64,000 bases of DNA from a virus, in IMG/VR virus record IMGVR_UViG_3300027861_000010; one strand, 5' to 3'. Shown here in pieces: positions 5-63,410 of this stretch. The position numbers and the translations under genes were made by a program. How positions within the stretch are numbered: position 1 is the first letter of the stretch; each line of letters opens with the position of its first letter. A model generated the notes under the pieces. That model was not told where the DNA came from. It made no database searches and was given only the letters and a program-made list of their open reading frames with translations.

Positions 5-1570
5 ATGCCGTCAGACGTATTGGTCGCCACGTCCATGCTGAAAAACATGATTCAACTCCAGATGCACCACTTTTCGTCGAGTGACTCGCCACTGCCGATT
101 GTGAGCTGGAGGTTGCACGGCACGTCAGAGCTGCATAAACAGTGGTCGTCTCTGGAGGGTAGGCAGGTTGTTATCTGGGAGCGAGAACCCACAGCACCGA
201 TGCTGCATCAGGCCATGATGTGTAATGCGAACATTTCATTCGTCGGCCCTGAGACCAAGAGGCAAAAACCTAAAGAGGTAAAAGGTGCTCGCTGGAAAGC
301 CTGGGTCAGTCACGATCCGGCCATAGACATCTGGCGAAGGATCGTTCGCACGTCGAGGCCTTATGAGCAGGCTCTGAAAAACTGGGCCAGGCTGGCTACC
401 CCGCAACAACAAGTCAAACTGCTACAGGATGCTGAACAATACGAGGTAGAAACAGCCCGGTTGGTACGCAGCGTGCTGAAGCCGAAGGTCAGTGTCAAAG
501 TTGGAAAAAAGATTACAGTTGGTACCAGTTCCACTCGCGAACGACCTCGAACCACGACCGGTAAAACTACCGTAATTGAACGAGACGGTAAGTGGTACAG
601 CCGGGAAGGTCGAATTCGACTGTCTGGCGTGGTGCGAGTAACTCACGTCGTTGCCCGTCCGTCCGGTCATCAGGATTATGTCGGTTTCCTGGAAGCTGAC
701 GGTCAGAAGTTTGACTTTCAGGTTCCAGTTAAAAAGGCAACAGCCCAGTGGCTACGAGACTTCGGACTAGGCAATGGTGTTTACCTTTACGAACACCATG
801 GAGCTCATCGCAACCAGAATGACCTGTCGTCTCGCTTCAACCCGTTCGAGGCTGCTATTCAGTTTCAGATACCCGAAGTAGTGAAAGGTGTTGACTCCGT
901 CGGCTGGGACGGCACTGGGTTTCAATTCCATGGAGCTCACTTAGAGAACGGGGTGTTCCATCAAAATCCAGATTTTAAGCTGCCAGTCAAAGCTCCAGGC
1001 CCTAAGCAGAACTATTGTCGAATGCGAGAGGAGGTTAAAACGGCTCTCGCCAAAGAAGGGAAAGAGATGTCGATCGTGTGGGCAACCGCTATCGCCGTCT
1101 GTGCTCAAGTGACCGCTCCAGTGGTCGAGCTGCATCCGTTTGGCATTTGGATCCATCGTAAGCAATGCGATTTGTTCCTTCAGACGCTTTACAATCGCTT
1201 TGATATTTACCGCGGTGACTATACGGCCTGGAAGCACCGTTGGCCGCGACGGCTGGATAAGTGGCATCAAGCTATCAAGAAGGACGACACAGGTTTCTTT
1301 GTCACACACTACCAGTCGCAGCCTACAAAAGAGATTCAAGAGCTGTTGGTAGTAGAAGCCAATGACGAGGACTTACAGCCTCGAATGATCACACACAGTG
1401 CTGACAAGATCGTGCTCAACTACCTGCGACACTTCAGTCAACTCGACCACAAGTTCCCAGGTGACTGGAAGACTTGGGTTGAGCACACTGTTGCAGGCAT
1501 GCATGAAGTGTTTGACTTCGTAGATACCGCAGCATTCCGCCAGGCTCCTGAACGAGTGAAAGTTGTTTAA
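5..1570 (+). CDS. Hypothetical protein, possibly 5'-truncated by the window edge; weak resemblance to primase/helicase-associated phage domains
   Basis: 521-aa ORF, frame open to the window edge; no catalytic motif recognised. Stop overlaps the terL stop (TTAA at 1567-1570). Confidence 0.6.
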   Translation: MPSDVLVATSMLKNMIQLQMHHFSSSDSPLPIVSWRLHGTSELHKQWSSLEGRQVVIWEREPTAPMLHQAMMCNANISFVGPETKRQKPKEVKGARWKAWVSHDPAIDIWRRIVRTSRPYEQALKNWARLATPQQQVKLLQDAEQYEVETARLVRSVLKPKVSVKVGKKITVGTSSTRERPRTTTGKTTVIERDGKWYSREGRIRLSGVVRVTHVVARPSGHQDYVGFLEADGQKFDFQVPVKKATAQWLRDFGLGNGVYLYEHHGAHRNQNDLSSRFNPFEAAIQFQIPEVVKGVDSVGWDGTGFQFHGAHLENGVFHQNPDFKLPVKAPGPKQNYCRMREEVKTALAKEGKEMSIVWATAIAVCAQVTAPVVELHPFGIWIHRKQCDLFLQTLYNRFDIYRGDYTAWKHRWPRRLDKWHQAIKKDDTGFFVTHYQSQPTKEIQELLVVEANDEDLQPRMITHSADKIVLNYLRHFSQLDHKFPGDWKTWVEHTVAGMHEVFDFVDTAAFRQAPERVKVV

Positions 1571-3567
1571 CCTTCCCAGTCCAGGATCTGTTTGCCGCGT
1601 GTTGACATTATGACTTCCTCGCTAATCTGAATGTCTTCGTAAGCAGACAAATCAGGCCAACGACCGTGCATTTGGAACAGCATCATAGTTCCCATGGTCA
1701 CAGCTTGAGCGAAGTCATCTGGCCCTGCCGGGTCTCGAAGAATTTTATAACTGTCGCGACCTCCCCCTGACTCTCCTTTGTCTTCAATCAAGTTCAAGAA
1801 GTCGTGCAGTAAGCCAACATCTTCGCCACCTCTGTAGTCGTACTTAAAGAATCGTACGATATTGGACTTTATGAACTGGCAGGTGTAGTTAATAGCCCGG
1901 TTACGGTCCATTGTGTAATGGGCTCGAGGGTGGTTGTCTGTTGGTGGCTTGAAAATGATCAATCCACCCTTGGCTGGACCGGTATAGGCTACGGGCAGGA
2001 TGTTGTTCATCCCCAGGCCAGCTTGACGCATGATCGTCTCGCGAACAGTACCAGCACCAGTGTAATCGTGAACCAGGTGACTGCATTTGAATGTGGACAT
2101 CACGCCCATGACAACCTTGGCTTCACGAACGTGGTCATGCGGGTTCATGCTGCGGTAACCATAAATTACATCTACCCGTCCGTCAGGCCGCAAACCACAA
2201 ACAGCGATCGAAGTGTATGACTGCAGGGCCAAGTCGCTTTTGCCTTTGCTCACACCGCCACCACCCCAGTCAACCGAACAGAAGCGAAACAGGTAGCCGT
2301 CAATATGATCTCGGGCTTGGTCGACAGTGCGTTTCCAAGGCAAACAGGCGGCTTTCTTCAGATCAGTTACTGTGACTAACTTGGATCCGCTGTCCCAGGA
2401 TTCTCCGCAGACTTCGTTATAAAAAACGTGAACTGGAGTGTTGCCTTTACCGATCATCTTGTCGTTGAGCTTCTGCCACTTTTCCGGATCAGCATAATGC
2501 ATCGGCATGATGATCTGAGGGACGTGGTAGCCAGCAAACGACCAACGTTTATCCTGATGGCGATGTACCCAGCGGCCTGTGCCTCCCTGGTAAGGTGGTC
2601 GCGGATTGATTGGCTTCGCACATTTGGCACAAATCACGCCAGGCCGAAACTCACTGATATCTGGATGCGGTGGCCCGATCATCTTCATCAGGTCGTATTC
2701 CAGTGCCGGAATGTTCCAGTGGCGACAACCAGGGTGGTGGCATTTGACCATCCACTCCGCCATGGAGGAGTCAGTCCACAGTCGCTCGATTGTGTTATCG
2801 AGCGTCTTGGGAGTACCGGCATATTGAATAAGCCCCCAGTCCCGAGACGCTGAGACAGTCTCGTGAATAATCGGCAAGAACGAGATATCCATATCCTGGA
2901 TCTCGTCGATGACATTCTTGTCCGCCGAAATACCGCGAGTACGTTCCGCATCCAGATATGCGAACGAGAAAATCATCTGGCTGCGATTCTTAAAGGACCG
3001 CTGCAAGACATTGTTGATCGTCGAAGTCCCTGAGAACAGCTTCCCGACGGGGCTGGTTTCGATGAAGGGAGCGACGTAGTTCTGAGAAAAACGTCGGATC
3101 ATCTCAAACAGAGGAGTGATGAATAATGTGGAAAAGTAAGGGATGCAATTGGAAAAGAGGACCCCCTGTGACGCCAGCGACGTGGACTTGGAGACCTGGC
3201 GACCGGTCTTCAACAAAGTCATTCGTGGCATCCGCGTCCTAAAAAAAGGAGCAAATGGAAAGTGGTCGTGTAAGTGATATGGCTTACCGCGAATCGACAA
3301 CAATAAAGGGAGGATTGGTTTCAGTGTCGTGTTGCCCGATTGGTGCATCACGTACTGAGCCGCCCGTAGGCGTTGAATGATTGGGTCGTCTGTTGGAGCA
3401 GGTCTAAAGTCCTTCAACAGCGGCGTATCAAGCAACTCCTCGATCTTGACGTTGTACGGATCGTGAGCCTTTTCTTCTGCCAGGACCTGACTGGAAGTAC
3501 GCCTGGCTTTTTTAATATCTTCGTAACTTGTCATCAAGGAGTGCCAAATGAAGTACGAAACTGACAA
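1567..3567 (-). CDS. terL: Terminase large subunit (likely start ATG at 3534)
   Basis: N-terminal ATPase with Walker A-like LLKTGRQVSKST and Walker B-like NVIDEIQD; GTPKT coupling motif; C-terminal RNase H-like nuclease (CSVDWGGGG, DDFAQA). Confidence 0.85.
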   Translation of the reverse strand: MSVSYFIWHSLMTSYEDIKKARRTSSQVLAEEKAHDPYNVKIEELLDTPLLKDFRPAPTDDPIIQRLRAAQYVMHQSGNTTLKPILPLLLSIRGKPYHLHDHFPFAPFFRTRMPRMTLLKTGRQVSKSTSLASQGVLFSNCIPYFSTLFITPLFEMIRRFSQNYVAPFIETSPVGKLFSGTSTINNVLQRSFKNRSQMIFSFAYLDAERTRGISADKNVIDEIQDMDISFLPIIHETVSASRDWGLIQYAGTPKTLDNTIERLWTDSSMAEWMVKCHHPGCRHWNIPALEYDLMKMIGPPHPDISEFRPGVICAKCAKPINPRPPYQGGTGRWVHRHQDKRWSFAGYHVPQIIMPMHYADPEKWQKLNDKMIGKGNTPVHVFYNEVCGESWDSGSKLVTVTDLKKAACLPWKRTVDQARDHIDGYLFRFCSVDWGGGGVSKGKSDLALQSYTSIAVCGLRPDGRVDVIYGYRSMNPHDHVREAKVVMGVMSTFKCSHLVHDYTGAGTVRETIMRQAGLGMNNILPVAYTGPAKGGLIIFKPPTDNHPRAHYTMDRNRAINYTCQFIKSNIVRFFKYDYRGGEDVGLLHDFLNLIEDKGESGGGRDSYKILRDPAGPDDFAQAVTMGTMMLFQMHGRWPDLSAYEDIQISEEVIMSTRGKQILDWEG

Positions 3568-9887: not shown

Positions 9888-10118
9888 GTGCGGTACTATA
9901 TTTTAACGATAGGCGGCGTCTGGTTTTTGTTTTCACTCGTTTTCACTCGTTTTCACTCGTTTTCACTCGTTTTCACTCTCGCACTCTGTAAGGCAGCATC
10001 AGACGCGGACGACTGGAATGAGGAGATGTTTAGAAAATTAAAAGAAAAGGAGGAAGCTAGTGCTTTTAACGAGAAGTGGGATCTTGAAAGCGATTCAGGA
10101 TGGCTACATCGGAATTGA
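9888..10118 (+). CDS. Small membrane protein containing a VNTR
   Basis: GGGAGG RBS, GTG start; hydrophobic N-terminus followed by ALCKAAS. Confidence 0.55.
   Translation: MRYYILTIGGVWFLFSLVFTRFHSFSLVFTLALCKAASDADDWNEEMFRKLKEKEEASAFNEKWDLESDSGWLHRN
9929..9978. repeat. 10-bp tandem repeat (GTTTTCACTC) x5
   Basis: Five perfect copies starting at 9929, 9939, 9949, 9959 and 9969. Confidence 0.95.
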
Positions 10119-12418: not shown

Positions 12419-12708
12419 GGCGTCGATCCAAACGCAAATCTGTGCAAATAGTCGTCTGTCCGGAAACGGGCAGGCGGCTTTGCCAGGACAACAAATGGCG
12501 TGAGTTCGCAAACTTCGGTACCTATCCCGAGTGCGTCAAGCTCTTCAAGTACCCACAAGCGGCACTGAAGGCTGGAGCACGGTATCGAATCAAACCGGCT
12601 CAGCCGGGCGACACTCTTAACAGTATCGTTTACCTCTATGACGGCGACTCAATGGACGCCTCAGGAAGGATTTATCGTGAGTCGAAAGAAGAACAAGCAG
12701 TTTGCTGA
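12415..12708 (+). CDS. Hypothetical protein
   Basis: GTGA overlap; 97 aa. Confidence 0.5.
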   Translation: MRRRSKRKSVQIVVCPETGRRLCQDNKWREFANFGTYPECVKLFKYPQAALKAGARYRIKPAQPGDTLNSIVYLYDGDSMDASGRIYRESKEEQAVC

Positions 12709-12773
12709 AGCGTATCAATGGACCCCGTTGATGCCTCGTCAGCGGTTGTTCGAGACAGCTGTCAGCAAGGAGG

Positions 12774-13073
12774 TTGAAGTTGAGTAACCCCGATAAAGTA
12801 GGAAGTGTTCTGTTGATTGTGCTTGCATTGGCCATTGGGATTATTGGTGTCCAATCCTGCAGTCAATCCAACATGGACTATTACGATAGCGACATTCTGC
12901 AAGTTGGACGAGAACGGCTCATCCAAAGCTTCACCGATCCAGATGAAGTGCAGGTAATACAAGAATCAGTTATTAGGCCGGGTCGCCGCGGTGGCGAGTT
13001 CGGGTACTGGGCTAGATACAAGCGACTCACTGCCGATGGTAGCTGGGTCGAGGAGGAACATTACGATGAGTAG
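12774..13073 (+). CDS. Membrane-anchored hypothetical protein
   Basis: AAGGAGG RBS; N-terminal TM segment VGSVLLIVLALAIGIIGV. Confidence 0.55.
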   Translation: MKLSNPDKVGSVLLIVLALAIGIIGVQSCSQSNMDYYDSDILQVGRERLIQSFTDPDEVQVIQESVIRPGRRGGEFGYWARYKRLTADGSWVEEEHYDE

Positions 13074-13560
13074 CATGATAGAACCAGGCAAGCCACTGTC
13101 CCTTGAACGCCTGATGGGTACGTTGGCTTCGTCTGTCGAAAAGGCTGAGCAGGAACGAGACAAGATCGCTACCGACGCTGGCGAAGCAGAACAAAAGAAC
13201 TGGTTCTTCTTCAACGGTAAGGTAACGGCCTTGCATGAGCTTGAAGCTCAGTTGCGTATGTGGTTGAAGTCTTTCCCGATACCCGCTTGCATTGATTGGT
13301 TGAAGTCTTTCCCGATGCCCGATTGCATTGATTTACCTAACCCTGGCGAGGTCAATGTTAAGTTGTCCAACGGAGAGACTGTAAGCCTTCGCGAAGACCG
13401 CGACTGCCTCCACGTCGGCCAAGTCGATGGCGTCGGAGAAGATTGGTGGCTTTGCACCATTCAAAAGAACGGGGTGCTTGTCGCACCTAACAGCAGTAAT
13501 AGCTGTGAGGTACTCGCACACAAACTGAAAAACCATGACCCATTAGGAGCTGAGGCATGA
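13066..13560 (+). CDS. Hypothetical protein with an internal 12-aa duplication
   Basis: GAGGAGG upstream; WLKSFPIPACID-WLKSFPMPDCID. Confidence 0.55.
   Translation: MSSMIEPGKPLSLERLMGTLASSVEKAEQERDKIATDAGEAEQKNWFFFNGKVTALHELEAQLRMWLKSFPIPACIDWLKSFPMPDCIDLPNPGEVNVKLSNGETVSLREDRDCLHVGQVDGVGEDWWLCTIQKNGVLVAPNSSNSCEVLAHKLKNHDPLGAEA
13261..13332. repeat. In-frame 36-bp tandem duplication
   Basis: tggttgaagtctttcccgat(a/g)cccg(c/a)ttgcattgat x2, two mismatches. Confidence 0.9.
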
Positions 13561-13721
13561 ATGTGACAGTCAACATCAACATTCGTATTACTGAGGATAC
13601 CGATCTCGAGAAGCTCAGGGAGCGTATTGCGGATCAAGTCCGTAAGTTGTCGAACCCTGTCCGTACCGATGAAGGCATCACTTCAGTCCAAAGCGTCACT
13701 CTTTCGGATCTGGCGAATTAG
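13557..13721 (+). CDS. Small hypothetical protein (54 aa) whose 3' end lies in the inverted copy of the 53577 gene start
   Basis: AGGAG upstream, ATGA coupling; MNVTVNINIRITED...VTLSDLAN*; translated by hand. Confidence 0.55.
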   Translation: MNVTVNINIRITEDTDLEKLRERIADQVRKLSNPVRTDEGITSVQSVTLSDLAN

Positions 13722-13767
13722 TACGAACTGAATTATCGGCCATGGCGTTACCTGATAGCTAAAAAAA
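13698..13767 (-). repeat. 70-bp inverted dispersed repeat, copy A (partner at 53553-53622)
   Basis: Reverse complement matches 53553-53622 at 69/70 positions by manual alignment. Confidence 0.95.
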
Positions 13768-13793
13768 GATTACGCATCAACAAGTGAGAGATT

Positions 13794-15093: not shown

Positions 15094-15257
15094 ACTGGAT
15101 TGAAATCTTTGAGGAATTCACTGACCAGGCTTGGACCGCTGAGACCAAGCTCGGCCTCTTGCTTGAGTTCCTCGACCAAAACGACGGCATCATCGTTGTC
15201 ACCGTAGACATGTTTCGTGAACACCTTTCTGAAATTACCGGTCAGGAGATCGCGTGA
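15090..15257 (+). CDS. Hypothetical protein
   Basis: ATGA coupling to the previous gene. Confidence 0.45.
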   Translation: MNWIEIFEEFTDQAWTAETKLGLLLEFLDQNDGIIVVTVDMFREHLSEITGQEIA

Positions 15258-15472
15258 ACCAGATCAATCTACGTTGCCCGACAGGGTCTAAGAAAGAACG
15301 AACCGGCTGGGGCGAATGGGACACGGTATTTCTCTACAAATGCTCGGAAGGGCATGAAGTTAGAGTGCGGGCGAGTTCGTTCCGCGGGACAACACCGGAG
15401 CCAGGCGTCGGAGCCATTTCATGTCCTCAATGTGAAAGGAGCGAACGTGAGCAGCGACGAGAATCGAAATAA
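15254..15472 (+). CDS. Small Zn-ribbon-like protein
   Basis: YKCSEGH and ISCPQC motifs. Confidence 0.5.
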   Translation: MNQINLRCPTGSKKERTGWGEWDTVFLYKCSEGHEVRVRASSFRGTTPEPGVGAISCPQCERSEREQRRESK

Positions 15473-16059: not shown

Positions 16060-16524
16060 ATGGGTTACACGCACTATATGAATCAAAAGAAAGAGATCCC
16101 ACAGGAGAAGTGGAACGAGGAAGTTATCCCCGCCGTTAAGGCCATCATCGAGACCGCCACGGAGAAGTGGAACATTCCGATTGTTGGGCCTATCAGCGAG
16201 CAGGACACATTTCCGGAGTTCAACAACGATCGCATTATGTTCAACGGCATTGGCGAAGATAGTCACGAAACCATGGAAGTCCTGCGACAACCGCGAGAGT
16301 TCTACTTCTGCAAGACGGCCCGAAAACCGTACGACGCTGTCTGCGTTGCGGTGAATGTGTGGTTGGAGACTTGCTTTAAGTCGTACTTCTCCTGGAGCAG
16401 CGACGGCGAAGGAGAAGATTACAAAACTGAAGGTGAGCGTCTGCTTTACGACACCTTCAAGTTTGAAGCTCTCAACCGCCGCGGACTCATCAAAGCCCTC
16501 AAGGAGAAAGTTGCAGCAGCATGA
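16060..16524 (+). CDS. Conserved-looking phage hypothetical protein
   Basis: AAGGAG RBS; MGYTHY, FNGIGEDSHET and FCKTARKPYD motifs. Confidence 0.65.
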   Translation: MGYTHYMNQKKEIPQEKWNEEVIPAVKAIIETATEKWNIPIVGPISEQDTFPEFNNDRIMFNGIGEDSHETMEVLRQPREFYFCKTARKPYDAVCVAVNVWLETCFKSYFSWSSDGEGEDYKTEGERLLYDTFKFEALNRRGLIKALKEKVAAA

Positions 16525-17959: not shown

Positions 17960-17977
17960 TTGTAACCCCCAAGGGGT

Positions 17978-18330
17978 GATAACGAATAAGTCTACCAATT
18001 GGTAGACTTATTCGTCTCTACTCTCCTACGGAGAGTAGACTCACGCGTCACGTACACATAGGCCTTTTCGCGTCTGGTAGACATTGCAGGCGTCGATTTC
18101 TGAGGCTTCAAATCGTGTCACCTTTGTGGGTGATAACGAATAAGTATACCATGTCGAACGTGGGTCTTTCCCTCGCCTTCAAAGGTTTGGGTCTAAGTTC
18201 TTACGTGGCAACTGTTTATATCTAATAGAGAAGACAATCAGACAGACCCGGCATTTAGCCGGTCTGAGTCTACTCTCCGTAGGAGAGTAGAGACGAATAA
18301 GTCTACCAATTGGTAGACTTATTCGTTATC
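17978..18330. repeat. Non-coding element bounded by perfect 66-bp inverted repeats, each with a 34-bp perfect palindrome and a 10-bp hairpin
   Basis: 17978-18043 is the exact reverse complement of 18265-18330. Palindrome ACGAATAAGTCTACCAATTGGTAGACTTATTCGT at 17982-18015 and 18293-18326; partial third copy at 18128-18151. Confidence 0.95.
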
Positions 18331-18362
18331 TCCAACAACTTTCAACAACGAAGGAGGCTCAA

Positions 18363-21634: not shown

Positions 21635-22160
21635 CTTTGTGTTCTTCATCATATTTTCGCTAGTGTGCTTCTTTTGTGGAGCACTCACGCAGTACAAGTA
21701 CACCGGTTCGCAGGAACGCCCTGAAGTTGAGCGAATGGTAGCACTGCCAGCCTGTGAATATGAGTTGGACAACATTCGCGTCATCGACGGCGACACGATC
21801 GAGTCCGACATTTTGTTTCCGCTTGGGTTGACCCTGCGTGGCGAGTACATCCGGTTCTCGGATTTCGACGCGTGGGAGAGCTCCAAGCGGAGACGGTCGG
21901 TCAAAGTGACTGACGCAGAGGTCGTCAAAGGCAAGAAGGCAACAGCCCTGCTGATTGACCTGATTGAAGACAAAATGATGGTCCTCATGCTTGATCAAGG
22001 CGAGCGGGACAATTACGGTAGAATTCTCGGACGAGCGGCTGTATATGCCGATGATGGCTCAAGGACCGAGGTGATGACTTTCATGAAAAACAATGACATG
22101 TTGAGGAGAAACAATGAAAGAAGAGAAACCGATGACCCCAGCGGAGAGGAACTCGATTAA
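21606..22160 (+). CDS. Membrane-anchored thermonuclease (SNase-like)
   Basis: N-terminal TM segment; RVIDGDTI, IRFSDFDAWE and DNYGRILG motifs. Confidence 0.8.
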   Translation: MSQRTAKIVNFVFFIIFSLVCFFCGALTQYKYTGSQERPEVERMVALPACEYELDNIRVIDGDTIESDILFPLGLTLRGEYIRFSDFDAWESSKRRRSVKVTDAEVVKGKKATALLIDLIEDKMMVLMLDQGERDNYGRILGRAAVYADDGSRTEVMTFMKNNDMLRRNNERRETDDPSGEELD

Positions 22161-22659
22161 GTATTTTGGTGAGTGGTTCAAGAAGTACAAAGGTGTGTCG
22201 AATCCGGTGGATTTGAACACAGAGGAGAAGTACAACTTCGCAATGGAGATCTGTGGAAGGGGTGAAGTTCGCTTCCTGGCACAGATGCTGCGTGAACGTA
22301 AAAAGTCTAAAGTCATCCCCGGCGTAGGACGGACTTTTCCTCACACTCATTACGATTACTGGCACGAGAAAGATCCGAAGAATTATCCGTTGGTGGCTAA
22401 GCCCAAAAAGCAAAATACCGTTGCGTTGGATGAGGCCGGGATAAAGCTGGCTGTTGAACTTCACGGACGCTTCTACACAAAGGCCCCTGGTTTTGATAAC
22501 CCTTCAGACATCAATGATCCACCCAAGTACGCTTTCATGAAAGAAGTCGGATGGAAGGCGGCTGTCTTGATGCACAAGGCCAGGAAAGGGTCAATCTATG
22601 GCACTAAGGCAAAGCAATGGAAGGACGGTAAGTTAATTGACCCACCAACAACTAAATGA
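22114..22659 (+). CDS. Hypothetical basic protein
   Basis: GAGGAG RBS; 181 aa. Confidence 0.6.
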   Translation: MKEEKPMTPAERNSIKYFGEWFKKYKGVSNPVDLNTEEKYNFAMEICGRGEVRFLAQMLRERKKSKVIPGVGRTFPHTHYDYWHEKDPKNYPLVAKPKKQNTVALDEAGIKLAVELHGRFYTKAPGFDNPSDINDPPKYAFMKEVGWKAAVLMHKARKGSIYGTKAKQWKDGKLIDPPTTK

Positions 22660-33938: not shown

Positions 33939-36900
33939 ATGGCAAGACGACGCATTATCACCCCTGCAGGTGGTGTCAATCTCAACCGCAGGGGAAAAGG
34001 TACGATCTCGGCGGCGAACGCTTATCAGAAGCGACTAAATCACTGCCGAACAAGTGATGCAATCTTCCCAGCGAACTCTCCTGGGCTTCCCCCGTTGCCT
34101 CCGAACTCCGCGTTTGTGAGCTACGTGCACGCCCTTGGGGATACCGAGACCGAAGTGTACGAAGAAAATGTGCTGGACGAGGAAGGTAATAAGAAGAAGG
34201 TCAGACGACTGAAGGCTAGTGCTCAGTTGCACGAGTTGATTCGAGATGCTCTGCGTACGCCGAGTTTCATGTTACCTGTGGAGATTGGTCCGCACAGAGA
34301 GAAGGAAGCGACATTTGTTCCTGGGCATTTGTGGGGAGCAGAAGGGGCGACAGGCCCGCGACAGGCTGACGTTATGATCCTGAACAAGATGCCTTGGGTC
34401 ACTGAGACTCACGAAGAGAGGTGTCTTGCTGGTGAAGAAGGTGAGTTGCTGCTTGAAGCGTTTCGACGCATCAAGGCTAAAGGGATCGGTAAGTTCTACA
34501 TCACTCACCTGGTGAAGTTCATGCCTCCCGATTGGAAGACCAATTTGAAGGCAGCTTGGGTTAAGGACTGCATGCATCTGCTGCACCACGAACTTAAGAT
34601 TGTTCAGCCCAAGTACATTTTGTGTTTGGGTTCTGACGCATGTAAGGCTTTACTTGGGTCGCAGGCCAGCATCACTTCCATGGAAGGTCGTGTTGAGCCC
34701 TTTGAGTACAACGTCGGTTATCTGCCTGAACAGCTCGGTGAGGAGTATACGAAGACTGCTCAGGTCATGGCTGTCATTCACCCAAAGCAGGTTCTTCGGG
34801 ATCAGGCAGCGGGGCGGCAGCTTGAACAGGGTGTTGGCCGGTTTGCAGCACTGACACAGGGAGCAGAGGTTGGAGCTTCAGAGAAGATTGATCACAGACA
34901 GATCGACAATCACATTGACCTGTACTGTCTGCTAAAGGAGATCGAGCAGGATCCGACCAAGGAAGACGATGTCATTGCAGTGGATGCTGAATGGCATGGC
35001 GATCACCCTGTCAATGAAAACGCGTACGTGCGGACTATTCAATTTGCGTGGCATCCGAAAGTGGCTGCCGGAGTCAAGCTGTGCGAAGCGGGAGGCGAGA
35101 TCACGAACGGTTTCAAGAACTGGGAAACAAACGGCGGCGGCTTCGCTCCCGCAACCATTGAGTTACTTACAAAGTTCTTCAACGGTGGCGAGTATCCGGA
35201 TATTGGTGAGCCTGGTGGTGTAATCAAGTTCCGTAAAAAGCGAGTTGTTGGGCACTTCTTTAATGCTGACCTTGAGTGGTTCGTTGACGCATTAGGGATC
35301 GACCTGAGGCCATCGTTTGCCTGCTCGCTCTTTGATTTCGAGATGAAACCACTTCATAGCATTAAGGGCCGTCGACGTAAATTGACCAAACTCTACAAGG
35401 ATGAAGGCTTTCGGATTGGCGATACTGTGTCAGCCTGGGCTCGGACGAAGCTGGAAGGTGGTGCCGATACTGGTTTGATGGCTCACGCTATTGAAGAGAC
35501 CGCCAGTTACAAGCTGGAAACTTTGGCCATGAGGTACACCACTGCTCCGCGGTACGATGCCGCTTTGGATAAGTGGAAAGAAGCTTACTGTAAGGAGAAG
35601 GGACTTAGCAGTAAGTCAATGGAAGGATATGGCGAGTGTCCTGACGATGTTCTGTTGCCGTACGGTATCTACGATGCTGACGTGACTTTGCGGCTCTTCT
35701 ACGCTCTCGACGTCCTACTGGACGAAGACTACGAGGGTAATGACTGCCGTGAGGCTTTCTGGGAGTCACAGATTGCAACTCCAGCTGTGTTAGAAATTCA
35801 TCGAACAGGGATCGCAATTGACAAGGCCCGTGTTGACGTACTCACCACAGCTTTTGAGAATTCACGAAGTCAACTCGAGGATAGCCTCCGGCAAGCAATT
35901 AACTGGCCGGACTTCAACATCCGGTCAACACAGCAGGTGAAGGAGTTCTTGTTTGGCCACAAGCTGAACGGGAAGCTCGACAAAGAGACGGGGAATCCTG
36001 TGAGGATCCGTCCGGAAGGTGCGATGAGCCTGGGTCTCCAGCCTCTGTTTGATACCGGCAAACCACCGAAACAGTGGATTGAGATCAAGAAGGCAAGGAA
36101 GGAGCACGAGCATTCACCTTCAACCAACAAGCAGGTGCTTTCCATCCTGGGTCGAGAGACTGCCGAGGAGCACAAATGTAAGTTGGTCAACATGGTGAGG
36201 GATTACCGGTTCCTTGATCAAGTGCTGAAGACAGTGCTGCGTCCAGCTCGACGCGACGATGAGAACAACAATGCTAAAATCGTCGACGATGATGGGCACT
36301 TCACTTACGAAGATGGTCTGGCGTCCATGGCTTGCGATGACGGCAAGGTGCGGACACACATTTACCAGACCAAGGAAACTGGTCGCTGGTCGAGTGCTCG
36401 ACCTAACCTGCAGAATATCTCGAAGCAGCGTGACCCTGATTACAAGCGTTTGCTGGGTGAGTCCTACAAGTACAGTCTTCGGAGTGTGCTGAAGGCTTCA
36501 CCTGGGCATGTGCTGGTTGAGGCGGATTACGTTGGTGCTGAGTTGTTCGGTATGGCTGTGATGGCTGGCGATCAAAACATGATTCAGCACGCGATGCGAA
36601 ATCAGCTGCCGGAAGATCACTCTGACTTCTACGACATCCACAGTAATGTGGCCGTCTTCGCTTTCAAGCTGAAATGCCCTCCAACCAAGAGCGGGCTGGC
36701 TTCGATCGGTAAGAAGCATATTCGTATCGTTGCGAAGTCTGTGATCTTTGGTATCGCCTACGGTCGAGGGGCCAAAGCGATTGCCGTGGCAGCAAAAGAG
36801 CAGGGAATCGACATTACGGTCGATGAAGCTCAAGCTGTGATTGATGCGATTTTCCAGATGTACCCAATGCTTCAGCCGTTCTTTCAAGAGTGTCAGGAGC

Positions 36901-38237: not shown

Positions 38238-40153
38238 GTCGAAAGAAGCGATCTCTCAAACCACGAACCCGTGAGTCCGTGGAAAACCGTCAGCTCGATG
38301 CTGATGCTGATGGTGGTCGGTCCCTGACCCCACGCGGCGATCACAGCATCAACCCGAACGTCAATAACGTTCGACTCGACAAGTTGCGGTGCTACAAGAA
38401 GGGCAAGTCTGTCATCCGCGTTTGGAACATGCTTGATCCGGAAAATCCCGGTGAAGCCCTGTTGAATGGTCGGTTGTCGGCCATTGATCTGGCAGGTCTT
38501 GGAGGCATGTCGATCTCGGAACCTGCTTTGTGCGTCCAGTACGCAGGCGTCCATAAGGACTCTGGTTCTTTCCTGGGTAATGACGACGTCGAGCAGTGCA
38601 GCTACATCATCGCACGCTCGAAGGGAAGCTCCTACGAAGGGGTGAACTTCTGGGATCTACCGTACCCCAAGCTGTATGTCATGGCGAAGAAGGCTCGAGA
38701 CTCGGGCGAGTTTGGCCACGGCGGTGCTTGGAATCCGAAGTGGAACGCTCTCATGTCGGGTCAGATGCCTGCTTTGGGTTCGTTCAAGCAGCGGTACTTC
38801 GTTGTCTGTTCGGTCCTTGAGAACGGCCCTAACCTGGACTTGGTGCGGGAACGTGTTGAGTACCGAAAGGACGGCAAGGACGTTGCCGAAGAGTACAAGC
38901 GGGAAGGCATTCCGCTTGGTGACAAGGCAGACGATCCTGTGATGATCTTGCAGTTGCCGGTTTCGGCAGGGCGTAAGTTGTTGCAGTTGTGCTGCATGGA
39001 GAAGCAGGATTACAACGGCAATCCTGATGTCAATCCGTCGGTGATGTTCAAGTACGGCGATCCGTGCGGGAAGTTCGATCCTGCGACCCAGACGGTCAAA
39101 GGCGGCGTTTTCTTTACGCTGTACAACCCTGAAAAGGTGACGATCGACAAGCACACCACGTTCCAGGGTGTCACCAATCCTCAGGTTGTCGAGTACGAAG
39201 CTGCTGTAACGGCTAAACACTCAGGCCCCAAGGGGCCTATCAGTGCAAGCCTCGGTGCCGAACAGGTCGACAACATCTTCAATAAGCATTTGTTCTTGTG
39301 GAAGGACAGCGACGAGGATCCGAAGGATTCGTACTTGCTGCACGAGCCCTCAATTGAAGAACGTTGTGTTCTCCTGGCCCGTGCGTTCAAGCAGGTTCCG
39401 AAGTTGTTGGAATTCTGTTGGATGTCGCAACCGGAGTACATCCAGTTCGATGCAGTGCAGGCGATTCTGAAGAACCGCACAACCAGTGTCGGAAGCGGTG
39501 TGGCTAAGCCAAGTCTGGAAGAGGACGAAGAAGAAGCTCCGTTCGATACCGAGGAGGACGAGGTTCCCACAAGCAAGGCGGCTAAGAAGTCCGCAGAAGA
39601 GTTGGTTGATGAGTTCGACGATGAGTTCGACGAGGACGAATTGAAGGATGGCGACGAAGTCGAAGCCTCTGGCGACGAAGTCGAAGCCTCTGGCGACGAA
39701 GTCGAAGCCTCTGACGACGATGACGAGTTCAGCGACGAGGACGAGGACGAGGAGTTCGAGGAAGGGGACGACGAAGACGAAGAAGAAACTGACGCTGAGG
39801 CGTTGGATGAATCTGAGTTGGTTGACGAAGCCGAAGACGAATTCGCGGACGATGACGGGGATGACGGGGATGACGGGGATGACGACGACGACAGCGACGA
39901 CGACGATGACGAAGAAGAAGAGGCTAATGCGGTCTCCGAGGACTTCGATGAATTCGACGATGAAGCTGAAGCGGAGCCTGAATTGGAAGAGCAGTTGAAC
40001 CAGAGCCTGGCAAAGGCGAAGGCGGTTGCCCGAAGCAAGAAGCGAGTTTCCAAGAAGACGACGAAAGCTGCTCCGAAGGCGTCTACCAAGAAGAAGTCCA
40101 CCAAGAAGAAGTCCACCAAGAAGAAGTCCACCAAGAAGACTGCTTCTAAGTAG
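38234..40153 (+). CDS. Putative ssDNA-binding/recombination mediator protein with a very long acidic tract and Lys-rich tail
   Basis: About 410-aa globular part, then a D/E-rich tract and KKKST repeats; lies between tmk and recA. SSB role is inferred. Confidence 0.5.
   Translation: MSRKKRSLKPRTRESVENRQLDADADGGRSLTPRGDHSINPNVNNVRLDKLRCYKKGKSVIRVWNMLDPENPGEALLNGRLSAIDLAGLGGMSISEPALCVQYAGVHKDSGSFLGNDDVEQCSYIIARSKGSSYEGVNFWDLPYPKLYVMAKKARDSGEFGHGGAWNPKWNALMSGQMPALGSFKQRYFVVCSVLENGPNLDLVRERVEYRKDGKDVAEEYKREGIPLGDKADDPVMILQLPVSAGRKLLQLCCMEKQDYNGNPDVNPSVMFKYGDPCGKFDPATQTVKGGVFFTLYNPEKVTIDKHTTFQGVTNPQVVEYEAAVTAKHSGPKGPISASLGAEQVDNIFNKHLFLWKDSDEDPKDSYLLHEPSIEERCVLLARAFKQVPKLLEFCWMSQPEYIQFDAVQAILKNRTTSVGSGVAKPSLEEDEEEAPFDTEEDEVPTSKAAKKSAEELVDEFDDEFDEDELKDGDEVEASGDEVEASGDEVEASDDDDEFSDEDEDEEFEEGDDEDEEETDAEALDESELVDEAEDEFADDDGDDGDDGDDDDDSDDDDDEEEEANAVSEDFDEFDDEAEAEPELEEQLNQSLAKAKAVARSKKRVSKKTTKAAPKASTKKKSTKKKSTKKKSTKKTASK
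39650..39712. repeat. 21-bp in-frame tandem repeat x3 (GDEVEAS)
   Basis: ggcgacgaagtcgaagcctct x3, perfect. Confidence 0.9.
40085..40139. repeat. 15-bp in-frame tandem repeat, about 3.7 copies (TKKKS)
   Basis: accaagaagaagtcc x3 plus a partial copy. Confidence 0.9.
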
Positions 40154-40166
40154 TGAATTGTCACAG

Positions 40167-40210
40167 CGGGGCCGGGGAGTGAGGAAACTCAGTCCCGGTC
40201 CCGTTTTTTT
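40167..40210 (+). terminator. Intrinsic terminator
   Basis: CGGGGCCGGG / CCCGGTCCCG outer stem with inner TGAG-GAAA-CTCA hairpin, followed by T7. Confidence 0.8.
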
Positions 40211-40229
40211 GTTTAATCAGGAGGTTAAG

Positions 40230-41732
40230 TTGGTAGATACACCAGAGTCTGACGATGTCTTCGACGAGTTCGACGAGTTCGACGATATCTTGGAGCCACC
40301 TGCTGCCCCCGCACCTAAGAAGGCACCTAAGAAGGCAGCAAAGAAGAAAGCGGTCAAGAAAAAAGCTCCAACAAAGAAGACCGTGAAGAAAAAACCAGCA
40401 GCCGAGGTTGCGGACTCTAAGAAGCCAGCCAAGAAACGGGTTGGTAATCTCGGAGATAATCGCAAGCTTACTGTTAAAGGAAAGAAGTCTCTGCGTTCCA
40501 GGTGGAGTGTTGAGAACCGCGGTAAGTCTCGAGACGGGTTGATGAGTGGGCTGGTAAATGCCGCTCGTGACAAGTTCGGGGCTGATCGTGTTTTTGGTTC
40601 CCGCGAGGAGCTCGGACAACTGGCAATCGGCATCCCCACTCCGTCGTTGTCGTTCGAGTACCTGGTAGCCAACGACATCTTCCCATTGTCGTCAGTTATG
40701 ATGCTGGCAGGCAGCTGGGGTAGTTGTAAGTCTGCGTTGTCGTATGAATTCTTCCGGTGGTTCTACGAGCTGTCCGGATTGGCAGTTCACATCGACACTG
40801 AAGACAAGTTTGATGCGGATTTCGCTTGCGACATCATGCGGGTTCCACACGAAGAGACGCCGATCATCTCGAACCGAGCCAATTCGGTTGAGCAGATGCA
40901 GCAAATTCTGACACATTACGTTAAGGAGCTGCAGAAGATTCTGATCGGCAATAAAGAGAATCCAGGGCCAGGGAAGATTGTTCCTTGTGTGCTGGCTATC
41001 GACAGTCTGGCCGGGGCGACATCAACCGAGATTCAGGAAAAGATCCTGAAAGACGGCAACGCAAACCGGACTCACCCCGTCAACGCGTTGAAGAACACGA
41101 TCTACTTAAGCGGCATCAAGAAGCAATTCGAGAACTGGCCGTTTACCTTATTGGTCGTGAATCACATGAAGGAGAAAACTGATGACATGGGTAACACCCA
41201 CCAATACACATTGGGTGGTCAGGCTTTCAACTTCCACGAGTCGTTCGAGTTGCGGAACTCGATCTGGAAATCGAAATTTAAGAACGCACAGTTCGAGGGT
41301 ATCGGTATTCGGATCCACTGCTCCAAGAACTCGTTCGGCCCCACGGGTCGCCGCATCAAGACTCGATTCCTTTGGTGGATTGAGGATGATCCGGAGACAG
41401 GTGAGCCTCGTGATGTGTTTCTGTGGGATTGGAACTGGTCGCTCTGCACCCTGTTGAACGAAATGGATGGCATCCAGAAACAGCGATTGAAAGATCGTGA
41501 TCTGGTCATCAAGTGCAAGTCTCCTCAAGCTGACATCGAGTGCTTGGCCAACTTTCGGGCAATTGGAATGGGCAAGGATGAATACCTGCCATTCCAGGAA
41601 GTCGGTCAGTTGATCCAGGATAACGAAGAAGTCTGCGAGAGAATTCGTGATGCCCTGAATATCAAACGGCGATACCATTTGGATCGCCCATACGATGAAA
41701 TCATCCAGGGACACTTGGAGAACTCAGAATGA
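40230..41732 (+). CDS. recA: RecA/UvsX-like recombinase with an acidic then K/A-rich N-terminal extension
   Basis: AGGAGG RBS before TTG 40230; Walker A GSWGSCKS, IDTEDKFD, Walker B AIDSLAG, VVNH, TLGGQAFNFH and KNSFGP. Confidence 0.85.
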   Translation: MVDTPESDDVFDEFDEFDDILEPPAAPAPKKAPKKAAKKKAVKKKAPTKKTVKKKPAAEVADSKKPAKKRVGNLGDNRKLTVKGKKSLRSRWSVENRGKSRDGLMSGLVNAARDKFGADRVFGSREELGQLAIGIPTPSLSFEYLVANDIFPLSSVMMLAGSWGSCKSALSYEFFRWFYELSGLAVHIDTEDKFDADFACDIMRVPHEETPIISNRANSVEQMQQILTHYVKELQKILIGNKENPGPGKIVPCVLAIDSLAGATSTEIQEKILKDGNANRTHPVNALKNTIYLSGIKKQFENWPFTLLVVNHMKEKTDDMGNTHQYTLGGQAFNFHESFELRNSIWKSKFKNAQFEGIGIRIHCSKNSFGPTGRRIKTRFLWWIEDDPETGEPRDVFLWDWNWSLCTLLNEMDGIQKQRLKDRDLVIKCKSPQADIECLANFRAIGMGKDEYLPFQEVGQLIQDNEEVCERIRDALNIKRRYHLDRPYDEIIQGHLENSE

Positions 41733-52630: not shown

Positions 52631-52919
52631 ACAAGTGGATGAAGTACCAACTGGGAATAACGCACCTGCTCCTGTGGAGTTCCCACTGCCTTCGCTGCGT
52701 AAATTCCTACTGCCGGATCAGTTGGTGTTGTTACGCTCTTTTGAGGCTCCGACGTTGCCTGAGCTTGACGCTCAAGTGAACCAGTGGGTTACCGAGACTA
52801 TGGCTATCATCACCATTCCATCCTCGATTAACAAAATTGAAAGTGCGTCTGGTACAACTTATACCGTGACTTTGACACACATTCGAGCGGCAGACGGGAT
52901 TGAAAATGTCAAAGCTTAA
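52623..52919 (+). CDS. Hypothetical protein
   Basis: GAGGG RBS; coupled ORF. Confidence 0.55.
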   Translation: MAEQVDEVPTGNNAPAPVEFPLPSLRKFLLPDQLVLLRSFEAPTLPELDAQVNQWVTETMAIITIPSSINKIESASGTTYTVTLTHIRAADGIENVKA

Positions 52920-53547
52920 AGAGCAATGGGAGAAATACCTTGACACAGTACCTGGCCTTGTTGACGTCGTGGTTCCGCAGAACACTCCGCTTGGAGACGA
53001 CGACGCCGAGTATCGAGCCTTCGCGGCAGACTTACCTGCCGACATCGCGGAACGCATGGCTGAAGCCCCCAACCAGGCCGATGAACCGCCTTGGGAAAAG
53101 GTCATCGAGCACCAGTGGTGTCTTTGCGAAATGCCCGAAGCGGACTTTCCCAGAGTCTACGCCTTTCCCTCCCTCAAAAGACTGGTCGAAGCACTTGCCA
53201 AACGTGAGGGAAATGAAACCGCCGTTTGGCCGATGTTCGGAGTACCGCTACGACTTACCAAAGCATTGCCGAACCCTAAGAAGCCTGGAGCCTTGACCCG
53301 CTACCTTTTACTGCCTAACCAGCTGGCTGCGGTAGTTTCAAGCAATGAGGGTTTTCAACTGATACCCCAAACCGTCCTACCGGACAGCCTGGAGATGCAG
53401 GATGAGGGTTGGTTAGGTGATCCAGATTTGTTGAAAGAGCAAGGTTACTTCATTGATGGCTTTGTAGAGGAAGACGAGTTTTCGACTGATCCCGACATGG
53501 GGTCGGACGATGACGATGGGGAAGACCCCAACTACATCGAAGAATAA
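52906..53547 (+). CDS. Hypothetical protein with acidic tail
   Basis: About 213-aa ORF. Confidence 0.6.
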   Translation: MSKLKEQWEKYLDTVPGLVDVVVPQNTPLGDDDAEYRAFAADLPADIAERMAEAPNQADEPPWEKVIEHQWCLCEMPEADFPRVYAFPSLKRLVEALAKREGNETAVWPMFGVPLRLTKALPNPKKPGALTRYLLLPNQLAAVVSSNEGFQLIPQTVLPDSLEMQDEGWLGDPDLLKEQGYFIDGFVEEDEFSTDPDMGSDDDDGEDPNYIEE

Positions 53548-53552
53548 TCCTT

Positions 53553-53622
53553 TTTTTTTAGCTATCAGGTAACGCCATGGCCGATAATTCAGTTCGTAAT
53601 AATTCGCCAGATCCGAAAGAGT
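53553..53622 (+). repeat. 70-bp inverted dispersed repeat, copy B (leader and first 15 codons of 53577..54680)
   Basis: Matches the reverse complement of 13698-13767 at 69/70 positions. Confidence 0.95.
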
Positions 53623-54680
53623 ACCACCAGAACATTGGCGGTATGCCGGGTACGATGATTCCTCGTTCTGGTCGGGATGGCCAGTCCCTGGCGTTCGACC
53701 CAAACAAACCTCAAACTGTTATTGTAGATCCCGGTGAGGACGGTGGCGGGTTCCAATTGGACATGTCTGTCCTGGCAGCAACTAAAACCAAATTCAACTC
53801 CGCGGCAGTACGATCAGAAGTAGCCGGTGACGTCACGTCTTTCTATCGTGAAGTCAGCGAAGGGCTCGTGGAGAAAGAGCAGCTCCAAGAGGAGCTGAAG
53901 ACCAAACTCCAAGCAAAACTGAAGGAACCTTCACCGATGCCTGAACCAATCAAGCCGATCACGTCCTTACCTCCTGTGGGTCAACCGAAGCCGAAGTTAC
54001 CAAGTGAAGCCGAAATGGAGGCTCAAGCCGCAGCCTTCGACACCGAGGGAGCGATCGACCGGTTGTTGAGCGAGGAGAAGGTTAAAGCTGAGCAAATGAA
54101 GGAGAAGCAGCGAGCTTGGTCTGCCATGGCTCACGATGCAGGAGAAACTCCAGCTCACTTGCAGCGGCAGCCGGAGGAGATGACAGAGATACGGGCCTCA
54201 CTCAACAAGCAAGGCGAGGCCATTAACGCCTTGATCGGTGTGCTGCACCGTATGGAGGAGAAGTCTGCTGAGCCCCCAGCGGAGCAAGCCCCACCTGCTC
54301 AAGAAGAGACACCCGAGGCCACAAAGGCGGAAGAGGTAGAGAAGCTCAATCCGTTCGAGAGCCTGAAGATTGAATTCCTGGTTGAAGACAAACCCAAACG
54401 GCCACAGTATGAAACCTATTTCGAGATGTCGAAAATGGGTACAATGGCTGCACGTTACCACGCTGTGGTGGTCGGGCAGCAGTGCTTGGCCTTGGTTTAC
54501 GACACACGGTTCGAGGACGGTTTCCAATACCTTCCACCGAACTTAGGTGAAGAGAAGATCACAGTTTCAGTTCCAAAGCTGGATGACGGCGTTTATACTT
54601 GCTCCTCATTAGGGTTGCATTGGTCCATGGGTTGTTTGGACGTCGTCATTCTCATTAAACATGACGGAGTAGAAGAATGA
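53577..54680 (+). CDS. Hypothetical protein two genes upstream of the portal (possible head-assembly factor)
   Basis: 367 aa, P/E-rich with a coiled-coil middle; function inferred from position only. Confidence 0.6.
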   Translation: MADNSVRNNSPDPKEYHQNIGGMPGTMIPRSGRDGQSLAFDPNKPQTVIVDPGEDGGGFQLDMSVLAATKTKFNSAAVRSEVAGDVTSFYREVSEGLVEKEQLQEELKTKLQAKLKEPSPMPEPIKPITSLPPVGQPKPKLPSEAEMEAQAAAFDTEGAIDRLLSEEKVKAEQMKEKQRAWSAMAHDAGETPAHLQRQPEEMTEIRASLNKQGEAINALIGVLHRMEEKSAEPPAEQAPPAQEETPEATKAEEVEKLNPFESLKIEFLVEDKPKRPQYETYFEMSKMGTMAARYHAVVVGQQCLALVYDTRFEDGFQYLPPNLGEEKITVSVPKLDDGVYTCSSLGLHWSMGCLDVVILIKHDGVEE

Positions 54681-54913: not shown

Positions 54914-56860
54914 ATGTCCATTCTTTCAGCAAATAGTCCCTATTTCCAAGCCGGAGCAGGTGCCAACGGTGATGAGGGCTTTGCCGATCCGTTCAACGAT
55001 ATAGCCACCACCCAGATGCCGACAACAATGAAGTCGGCTCTGTGGTGGTCCGAATACATCTGGACGGTGATGGGCACCTACCGGATGGCGATGGAACGAA
55101 TCGTCAGTTACTTCATCACTGACGTTGAGCTCGGAGGGGATGCCAGCGATGACGAAAAAGACAAGTACCAGGACTTCCTGGGCGAACAGCTTGACGCTTT
55201 AAGTTTCCTGGGCCTGATGATGCGTGACAGGCTTTGCTACGGGAACGCATTTGCCAGTGTTGTTGTTCCTTTTCGCCGCTATCTGCAGTGCCCCAAAACA
55301 GGCGATCTCTACCCACTCAAGATCGTCTATTACAACTTCAACTTCCAATTCAACGACAAGTTCGAGTTCATCGCGACATGTCCGAAGACAGGCTGGCGTG
55401 GAGCTTGGCATGTAATCGACAAGCCTCGTGAGGAGTCGGATCACTTAATTCTCAAGCGGTGGAACCCGCACGAGATGGAATTGCTGCACGACCCCTACAC
55501 TGACGAAGTAGCATATTTGTGGCGAGTTCCTGAGTACTACAAGCGGATGATTAAAGAGGGGAATCTTTATCATCTGGAGCGAGCCAGTAAGCAAGTACTC
55601 GAAGCGATCAAGCACGATAAGCTGTTCCGCTTCAATCCTGATGCGATCTATCACATGAAGGAACAGACCCTGGCGGGCATTCGCAACATGGGTTGGGGCC
55701 TTCCTCGCAGCCTCGTCAATTACAGGCAGATCTGGTACGTCCAGGTGCTGCGGCGATACAACGAAGCAATTGCGTTGGATTACATCATTCCCTTCAGGTT
55801 AATCACGCCTGAAGCTCGAAGTGGTGGGCAGAGTGGGCTTGGTACTCAAGACCCCATGTCGGTCTACAACGCAGGCGATTTCCGCTCACAGATCCGTCAC
55901 ATGTTGAATAAACGACGGCGTGATCCGGCGTCTTGGCAGATGCTGCCATTCCCTGTGAATTACCAGATGCTGGGCGGTGATGCCAACCAACTGGCTCCTA
56001 CGGAGCTGATCACACAGGGTTTCGATACGTTACTCAATGAGACGGGCACGCCGGTTGAGTTCTACAATGGTTCCTTGTCCATGCAGGCCGCTCCTGTGGC
56101 TCTGAGGCTGTTCGAGAGCACTCACCGTCAATTGGTGTCTGATGCGAACAACTTCTTACAGTGGATGTGCAACACAGTCAGCAGGGTCATGTCCTGGGAG
56201 ATTGTGGACTGCAAGCTCAAACGAGTTACGCTGGCTGACGATATTGCAAAGCAGACTACTGCTCTGCAGTTGATGATGGGTCAGCAGCTTTCTGGTACAT
56301 CTGGTCTGGCTGCAATTGGTTACGACTGGGAGACCGAACAGAAGCGACTTGCCGACGAAGCACGCAAGCAACAGGAAATGGCTGCTCGGCAAGCGGAAGA
56401 AGCAGAGCAGGCTGGGCTTGCCCAGCAGATCGCCAAAGGACAGCCAGCAGGAGGCGGTATGCCTCCTGGCGGCGACCCAGCAGCTGCTGGTGCAGGTGGG
56501 GATCCTGCCGCGGCTGCTGGTGGCGGTGGTGGCGATCCTGCTGCGGCTGGTGGTGGTCCAGGTATGGCCGCACAGGGCGGTATGCCTGTGTCGGACTACA
56601 TCCAGTCGATGGGTCCGAATGCCAACGTTACGCCTAACGATCTGCAGTCTGCTGCTGAGATGATTGCTCAGGAGTTACTTGGTTTGCCTGAAGGCACCAA
56701 AGATTCGCAGCTTCGAGAACTGAAGAAGCACAATCCAACCCTTCATGCTATCGTGAAGGAAAAGATGAACGACACGCGACAGGCTGCTCGTCAACAAGGT
56801 GGCGACCAACTCCTGCAACAGCAGTTCGGAGGGGGAGGCCAACCTGGAGCTCCCATGTAA
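54914..56860 (+). CDS. Portal protein (putative)
   Basis: 648 aa with helical N-terminal wing (DRLCYGNAFASV), WGLPRSL, AIALDYIIPFRLITP and a low-complexity G/A/Q C-terminus; GGAGGA RBS. Confidence 0.65.
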   Translation: MSILSANSPYFQAGAGANGDEGFADPFNDIATTQMPTTMKSALWWSEYIWTVMGTYRMAMERIVSYFITDVELGGDASDDEKDKYQDFLGEQLDALSFLGLMMRDRLCYGNAFASVVVPFRRYLQCPKTGDLYPLKIVYYNFNFQFNDKFEFIATCPKTGWRGAWHVIDKPREESDHLILKRWNPHEMELLHDPYTDEVAYLWRVPEYYKRMIKEGNLYHLERASKQVLEAIKHDKLFRFNPDAIYHMKEQTLAGIRNMGWGLPRSLVNYRQIWYVQVLRRYNEAIALDYIIPFRLITPEARSGGQSGLGTQDPMSVYNAGDFRSQIRHMLNKRRRDPASWQMLPFPVNYQMLGGDANQLAPTELITQGFDTLLNETGTPVEFYNGSLSMQAAPVALRLFESTHRQLVSDANNFLQWMCNTVSRVMSWEIVDCKLKRVTLADDIAKQTTALQLMMGQQLSGTSGLAAIGYDWETEQKRLADEARKQQEMAARQAEEAEQAGLAQQIAKGQPAGGGMPPGGDPAAAGAGGDPAAAAGGGGGDPAAAGGGPGMAAQGGMPVSDYIQSMGPNANVTPNDLQSAAEMIAQELLGLPEGTKDSQLRELKKHNPTLHAIVKEKMNDTRQAARQQGGDQLLQQQFGGGGQPGAPM

Positions 56861-62963: not shown

Positions 62964-63264
62964 CTTAAAATCCGGAATTGAACATGGAACTACTCAAGAG
63001 AAGAGATTAAGAACACTGATGTTATCGACAAGAACTCCATTTAACTTAATGGCACCTTGCGATTCGATACGGTGTGAGACTTCGTGGAAGGAGAAGTCAA
63101 ATGACTCTTCCTGACACTTACGATGACATGCAACGAAATGTCCTCCGCTTGTAATGATCCTACGGGGTGGTAAGACACCCGATCAGCATGGGTAGCTCCC
63201 TGTTAGTCTGATTGCGAAACGAACGAGAAATCGAAAAGGAGTAGATCGGATCGTTACAAATTTT

Positions 63265-63337
63265 GGAGATTTAGCTTTGATGGTCAAAGCGTCCGGCTGA
63301 AGACCGGAAGAACTCGGTTCGATACCGAGAATCTCCA
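63265..63337 (+). tRNA. tRNA-Phe (GAA), CCA not encoded
   Basis: Acceptor GGAGATT/AATCTCC, D stem GCTT/AAGC, anticodon stem TCCGG/CCGGA with loop CTGAAGA, T arm CTCGG-TTCGATA-CCGAG. Confidence 0.95.
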
Positions 63338-63410
63338 CTTGGTAGCTTAATTAGTTTATGTTTTTTATAAACAATTAAAGCTACCACACTACATAAAGGC
63401 AGGAGGAATT

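Follow-up and report, generated by a model that had tools for sequence, protein, structure and literature searches.

Genome context of the locus

The window, by which we mean the whole 64,000-nucleotide stretch of DNA analysed here, derives from an uncultured marine phage of about 213 kb and includes the phage's terminase gene (1567-3567). Within a small accessory open reading frame (ORF) it carries copy A, an inverted copy of the translation start of a head-module gene that lies 39.8 kb away (donor B; Table 1), and all genes called around the copy are on the + strand, as a preliminary description of this DNA had stated. Neither the recipient ORF nor its neighbours match Pfam or PHROG, and the same holds for the head-module gene and the portal-like gene. 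The head-module protein belongs to a family with 381 relatives at E ≤ 0.001, in which the position two genes before the portal is kept. Alongside the UvsX/RecA-like recombinase, the window encodes endonuclease VII, an SbcCD-like protein, PolA, a helicase and a primase. The polA product (33939-37553) combines a family A DNA polymerase with a uracil-DNA glycosylase-like domain in one fusion protein, and a Tubulin/FtsZ-family gene (60042-61481) follows the portal, separated from it by a few genes that include glycosyltransferases.

Table 1. Features at the inverted copy and elsewhere in the window that bear on its origin
Feature	Position	Strand	Description
Copy A	13698..13772	-	75-nt in-frame insertion, reverse complement of 53545-53622; 2-3 nt lost in an A/G run near the right end; one later substitution at 13721
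Donor B	53545..53622	+	Spans the upstream gene's stop codon, an intergenic leader of 29 nt, and the ATG and first 15 codons of 53577-54680
Recipient accessory ORF	13557..13721	+	54 aa in the window (nonsense)
18-nt insert site	13560..13563	+	Sister alleles only; absent in the window
18-nt insert donor	22113..22130	+	Base -1 and first codons of gene 22114-22659; chance 4e-6
16-nt insert site	13743..13744	-	Between copied ATG and copied leader; allele A2 only, absent in the window
16-nt insert donor	33922..33938	+	Ribosome-binding site directly before the PolA gene 33939-37553; chance 1e-5
Head-module gene	53577..54680	+	Conserved 367-aa protein, two genes before the portal
Portal-like protein	54914..56860	+	ESM Atlas features 0.92-0.94 to portal clusters
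UvsX/RecA-like recombinase	40026..41732	+	PHROG 97, E 4e-16; Pfam RecA weak
Leader motif	53551..53567	+	T-run, then 8 invariant bases; lies after the upstream stop and ahead of the ribosome-binding site in 53577 homologs

The leader of the head-module gene contains a motif that is kept in four relatives (L001, L056, L057 and L060; 45-51% protein identity) and occurs once per genome; it is a candidate late promoter of the phage family. In copy A the same motif faces left (about 13753-13767). Motifs with a similar T-run stand before other start codons in three related genomes (G001-G003).

The copy, its donor and its strain-level alleles

BLASTN alignment confirms that 13698-13767 matches the reverse complement of 53553-53622 at 69 of 70 nt (E 7e-28). 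The match had also been described as extending by 5 nt over a 3-nt indel, and these bases do belong to the copy, which is 3 nt short of the 78-nt donor in the window, or 2 nt short if the donor had the 8-T tract found in some strains. The donor starts at the stop codon of the gene 52906-53547 and includes the leader, ATG and first 15 codons, as had been proposed; the end point of the copy at 13772 proved exact, since the contig of an empty-site strain omits 13698-13772 through a zero-overlap joint that skips 75 nt, and the single mismatch does create the TAG stop of ORF 13557-13721. Both junctions are blunt, target duplication is absent, and no microhomology is found at the switch points of the 75-nt insert. 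In its original state the insert is in frame and free of stops, and read leftward it yields only the first 15 residues of the 53577 product before a junction-made stop.

Donor searches covered the 64-kb window, in which the longest other distant inverted match is 18 nt exact, a local palindrome at 17975-18333 apart. That element consists of 69-bp inverted arms, each with a 34-bp perfect palindrome, round a 221-bp core; it is kept in sister strains and is possibly an origin or control region. The 16 nt to the right of the A-run in the copy were considered as a fourth insert and rejected, as they correspond to 5 nt of donor followed by the native end of the ORF.

An exact empty site is present in three contigs (L040-L042) from strains 97.5% identical in the flank, as well as in a further run (X21), and is without similarity to the donor. 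The recipient ORF is 43% identical to, and colinear with, a 58-aa gene of a distant relative that is uninterrupted there; its colinearity with the empty form marks the latter as ancestral. The copy is thus absent from both the 97.5%-identical strains and the distant relative, so that the insertion is recent and the earlier suggestion of an acquired fragment holds to that extent. Around the empty form (allele A0, 51 aa) the strains define a short allelic series. Allele A1 has a perfect 70/70 copy together with an 18-nt insert at the ORF start and encodes 82 aa (L092, L099 and run X4); the window allele corresponds to A1 with a nonsense change and without the 18-nt insert, and shares with A0 the ancestral bases at 13579 and 13633; and allele A2, represented by 8-9 distinct contigs, is the 82-aa form with 16 nt inserted exactly at the copied ATG and another 16 nt deleted between 3-nt repeats, leaving a product of 79 aa. 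The fusion ORF has accordingly been broken in two independent lineages, and in A2 the complementarity to the donor is split at the start codon. Between alleles the copy is no better conserved than its flanks, with 7 differences in about 1060 nt.

The stretch was found in twenty studies (2012-2023), and near-identical strains (99% or more) sampled from 2012 to 2020 all keep the copy. The strain comparison is based on contigs retrieved by exact-protein look-ups, among which some JGI/ENA records are probably one assembly filed twice (L091/L097; L022/L023 begin at the same base). No copy of this phage turned up when IMG/VR and JGI contigs were scanned with patterns and proteins.

The two shorter inserts have exact donors of their own. 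The 18-nt insert lies on the same strand as the start of gene 22114, while the 16-nt insert matches 33922-33937 in reverse complement, with an exact donor match of 17 nt, and each is flanked on one side by a 4-5 nt microhomology that contains an ATG. All three inserts thus fall within 240 bp, all three donors are the phage's own translation starts, and two of the three land exactly on an ATG. With the microhomology allowed for, the post hoc joint probability of this bias is about 2e-4 (0.088 x 26/499 x 5/132). In a limited literature search we found no report of gene-start-biased templated inserts in phages.

The locus lies in a zone of plasticity that also shows gene swaps and further microhomology deletions, many of which coincide with gene starts. 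Strain junctions at or just after start codons are seen at a gene gain (7567), a fusion deletion (15094-15461) and a cassette swap (62997-63309). At 12678-12773 a small basic gene, intact in L004, L005, L007 and L008, has lost most of its start through deletion of 60 nt between 8-nt repeats. In a 186-kb sister contig a scaffold gap (L006, 5441-5840) replaces window positions 12695-13633 and may represent a deletion of the genes directly left of the copy. Within gene 16060 an internal segment (16098-16380) is only about 80% identical between otherwise 99%-identical strains and is a homologous exchange with a diverged relative. An AT-rich hairpin with an HNH endonuclease gene (63310-63881) is missing from L024, a contig with no other difference from the window over 19.7 kb, and is a very recent homing-type insertion. 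Finally, a 10-bp tandem repeat at 9929-9978 has five units in the window and three in L013 and L016, its copy number therefore varying between assemblies.

Probable origin of the copy

We consider copy A most likely, with a probability of roughly 0.6, to be a recent templated insertion, the scar of a template switch or of break repair that was tolerated in a dispensable region. This is preferred over an evolved switch because the site is empty in relatives and because sister strains are already breaking the copy. The change ran from an empty to a filled site with donor B as its source, and its enzymology can be pictured as follows: during break repair or recombination-dependent replication in a dispensable early ORF, a DNA end would have passed to the opposite strand of its own genome at 53622, by joining or by extension on it, and taken up about 77-78 nt before rejoining its own locus. 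As the insert was in frame, coupling to the next gene survived and the insert was tolerated. In the drift that followed, one lineage, that of the window, acquired a stop codon; another acquired the two further short inserts, templated through their ATG-containing microhomologies, and lost 16 nt between 3-nt repeats. The UvsX-like protein is a likely catalyst of such microhomology repair and of any flipping between the copies, and the 70-bp inverted pair would be a passive substrate at which it could occasionally flip the intervening 39.8 kb, with the colinear form dominating. Any effect of antisense pairing or of a leftward promoter would likewise be a by-product rather than an evolved switch.

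In support of a scar, three related genomes (175-205 kb) contain no distant inverted gene-start copies; the ordered allelic series, the plasticity of the region, the single-copy leader motif of the relatives and the phage's own UvsX, endonuclease VII, SbcCD-like protein and PolA count in the same direction. Against it, a blunt 75-nt insert is unlike typical template switches or the minihomology joins of phage T4, and the donor is 39.8 kb off; retention of the copy in all strains at 99% or more fits drift but fits a benefit as well. Plain random repair, moreover, does not explain the three-for-three bias towards gene starts. Part of the bias reflects the usual gene-boundary mosaicism, since other strain differences are also located at gene starts.

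Modular phage mosaicism has its junctions at gene boundaries, and other strain differences here likewise start or end at gene starts (7567, 15094, 62997). Modular mosaicism, however, moves whole genes, whereas the inserts at this locus are pieces of 16-75 nt taken from gene starts of the phage itself, so that a mosaicism filter fits the whole-gene changes better than it fits the fragments. Templated mutagenesis was reportedly described for T4 by Schultz and Drake in 2008. Template-switch mutations and the Ripley model are reviewed in PMC8604942: as in these, a stretch of the same genome, here in reverse complement, was copied between two switches, and the event is recent, confined to the strain level and has left a perfect inverted repeat. 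Classical template switches are nevertheless short, local and primed by a pre-existing imperfect repeat, whereas here the 75 nt were drawn from a donor 39.8 kb distant, have blunt ends and were joined by two more inserts; a local quasi-palindrome of the Ripley type does not describe the locus, given the distance of the donor and an empty site without similarity to it. In T4, UvsX joins broken ends through 3-4 nt matches (PMC8262927). The present phage resembles that system in its UvsX-like recombinase, in the non-essential region affected and in the 3-8 nt matches used by the nearby 16- and 60-nt deletions and by the two short inserts; the reported T4 products are deletions, however, while the main event here is an insertion without minihomology, for which a nuclease cut is conjectural.

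Read as a templated insertion, the locus is a well-resolved natural record, through an empty site and three derived alleles, of the accidental origin of long inverted repeats and would-be antisense sequences in a wild phage. It also cautions against taking every perfect antisense match to a start codon for a regulator.

Alternative readings of the locus

The intervening segment might instead have a history of its own. Although on balance unlikely, it deserves some weight that a real 39.8-kb inversion bounded by the copies has occurred. Either a staggered-break inversion would have given rise to the duplication and been undone by homologous recombination, or an inverted lineage would have arisen after the insertion. 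Once inverted, copy A would be the leader of 53577, and the PolA ribosome-binding site could have been inserted and selected there because it restored expression of the head gene, and then returned to site A on re-inversion. Consistent with such a history, five contigs (L020, L022, L023, L039 and L043) join the left flank of A via the copy to the inverted left flank of B, and L049 represents the reciprocal junction, with the A2 leader and its PolA site directly before a complete 53577 gene. An inversion would also account for a donor that crosses a gene boundary, as only such breakpoints would be viable, and for a stronger ribosome-binding site, correctly spaced from the copied ATG (anti-SD -6.2 versus -3.9 kcal/mol; relatives, -4.3 to -6.2), a PolA-type site never being found at colinear B (15 contigs). 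Selection in an inverted lineage would, if true, neatly account for the 16-nt insert.

The junction contigs are, however, all short or of low coverage (SPAdes coverage 1.7-3.2, or only 40-53 nt of one flank), and a simulated colinear genome gives false joins in 2-9% of assemblies at 2-4x and in under 0.5% at 6x or more, in a simple single-end graph model rather than an assembler. The Logan contigs (k 31) collapse the repeat. Furthermore, all 23 accounted-for contigs with a full 13794 gene are colinear, as are a 94-kb and a 186-kb contig across both sites and 15 contigs at site B. The junction contigs come from about five independent samples, which is somewhat, though not decisively, above the expectation for artefacts. 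The preliminary description had proposed a recombination site that flips this segment: the 70 bp of inverted identity, the UvsX-like recombinase and contigs of both junctions stand in its favour, but the copies do not form a dedicated site and the contigs may be assembler artefacts. Serine or tyrosine invertases were not found among about 30 proteins scanned or in external gene tables, and flipping, if any, would be homologous and proceed via UvsX. Invertible segments such as Mu G/Gin, P1 C/Cin and the shufflons, and RecA-type flipping between long inverted repeats, provide the precedents. The present locus shares with them an inverted pair round a segment and contigs of both junctions; unlike Mu G/Gin, P1 C/Cin and the shufflons, it shows neither an invertase nor a short specific crossover site, the segment measures 39.8 kb and the colinear form dominates, leaving homologous flip-flop as the only possible mode.

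A broader proposal, which we regard as improbable, addresses the gene-start bias directly: by mutation or by means of an enzyme, the phage would preferentially cut and paste its own translation-start regions, with the locus as three records of it. The PolA site would then be a working head-gene leader in the inverted isomer, ribosome-binding-site shuffling would combine with the 40-kb flip, and antisense complementarity would be a side product. Should either the gene-start bias or the inverted isomer with an upgraded ribosome-binding site prove true, a route would be revealed by which phages rewire expression through the relocation of 16-75 nt of leader sequence, and a new antisense element would have been caught at birth.

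Quite improbable, too, is a newborn regulator under selection, in which an early + strand RNA pairs with the 53577 start and delays translation of the head module or, alternatively, a leftward late promoter dampens upstream early genes; in A2 the transcript would also pair with the PolA ribosome-binding site. The predicted duplex with the 53577 start reaches about -130 kcal/mol, that of A2 with the PolA start -46 against a background of -30, and the complementarity covers both ribosome-binding site and ATG; the copy is kept in all near-identical strains and includes the motif conserved across relatives. Since pairing would be strong if the RNAs met, an accidental antisense effect is possible, and since the copied leader motif is possibly a late promoter, a leftward transcript is a second possible side effect. 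Yet the copy is absent from close and distant relatives, its identity does not exceed the flank background, it lies inside a translated ORF in two of three alleles, and the third insert is in sense orientation. Consensus scans, which do not cover phage-specific promoters, detected neither promoter nor terminator at copy A, the predicted RNA is unstructured (z +1.35), and Rfam gave no match. Antisense RNAs that block a translation start are well known, among them lambda OOP, P22 sar, IS10 RNA-OUT and trans-acting sRNAs. Copy A resembles these in its long complement (69/70) over a ribosome-binding site and start codon, but the known RNAs are conserved and possess a promoter, terminator or fold of their own, whereas copy A lies inside an mRNA and is unstructured, strain-specific and decaying. 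The trans-antisense switch first put forward for this locus, split at the ATG in A2, thus finds no positive support, and antisense control, as judged from sequence, is possible but unsupported.

Still less credible is a dedicated or RNA-templated process that captures the phage's own translation-start fragments at this site, possibly tied to its RAMP/Nop-like gene pair. The origin of all three inserts, the two placed exactly on an ATG and the blunt ends of the long one would fit such a process, but the inserts differ in length (16, 18 and 75 nt) and orientation, related genomes have no equivalent, neither a reverse transcriptase nor Cas1 was found among the proteins scanned, and the coincidence of other strain differences with gene starts resembles ordinary phage mosaicism. 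As for the guide-like fragment suggested earlier, the copy site shows no repeats, array or GGY-NN periodicity of a CRISPR, TIGR or VIPR guide locus and no Rfam family; the RAMP-like and Nop-like genes, which have no Pfam match, lie 14 kb away, and no link to them was found. VIPR guides, moreover, are reported not to self-target (10.64898/2026.04.26.720920), which counts against capture. A partial VIPR guide string of 10 bases, too short for a stringent comparison, matched neither the window nor the empty-site loci.

That copy A is an assembly artefact absent from real DNA, a chimera having been among the early concerns, is effectively refuted: assemblers do stumble at the repeat and some contigs end inside it, but independent assemblies span the copy with both flanks across samples, years and assemblers, in at least four other distinct contigs for the window allele and about 10 for the sister alleles, and there are three distinct alleles with their own linked SNPs.

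Elsewhere in the window, an AT-armed palindrome of ~16 bp with a CCGG-like centre recurs at about 10596, 17099, 19024, 26882, 33801, 42290, 49945, 60016 and 62966. It is found, with variants, in the three related genomes G001-G003, both in and between genes, and is possibly the binding site of a phage protein with a role in nucleoid organization, packaging or segregation.
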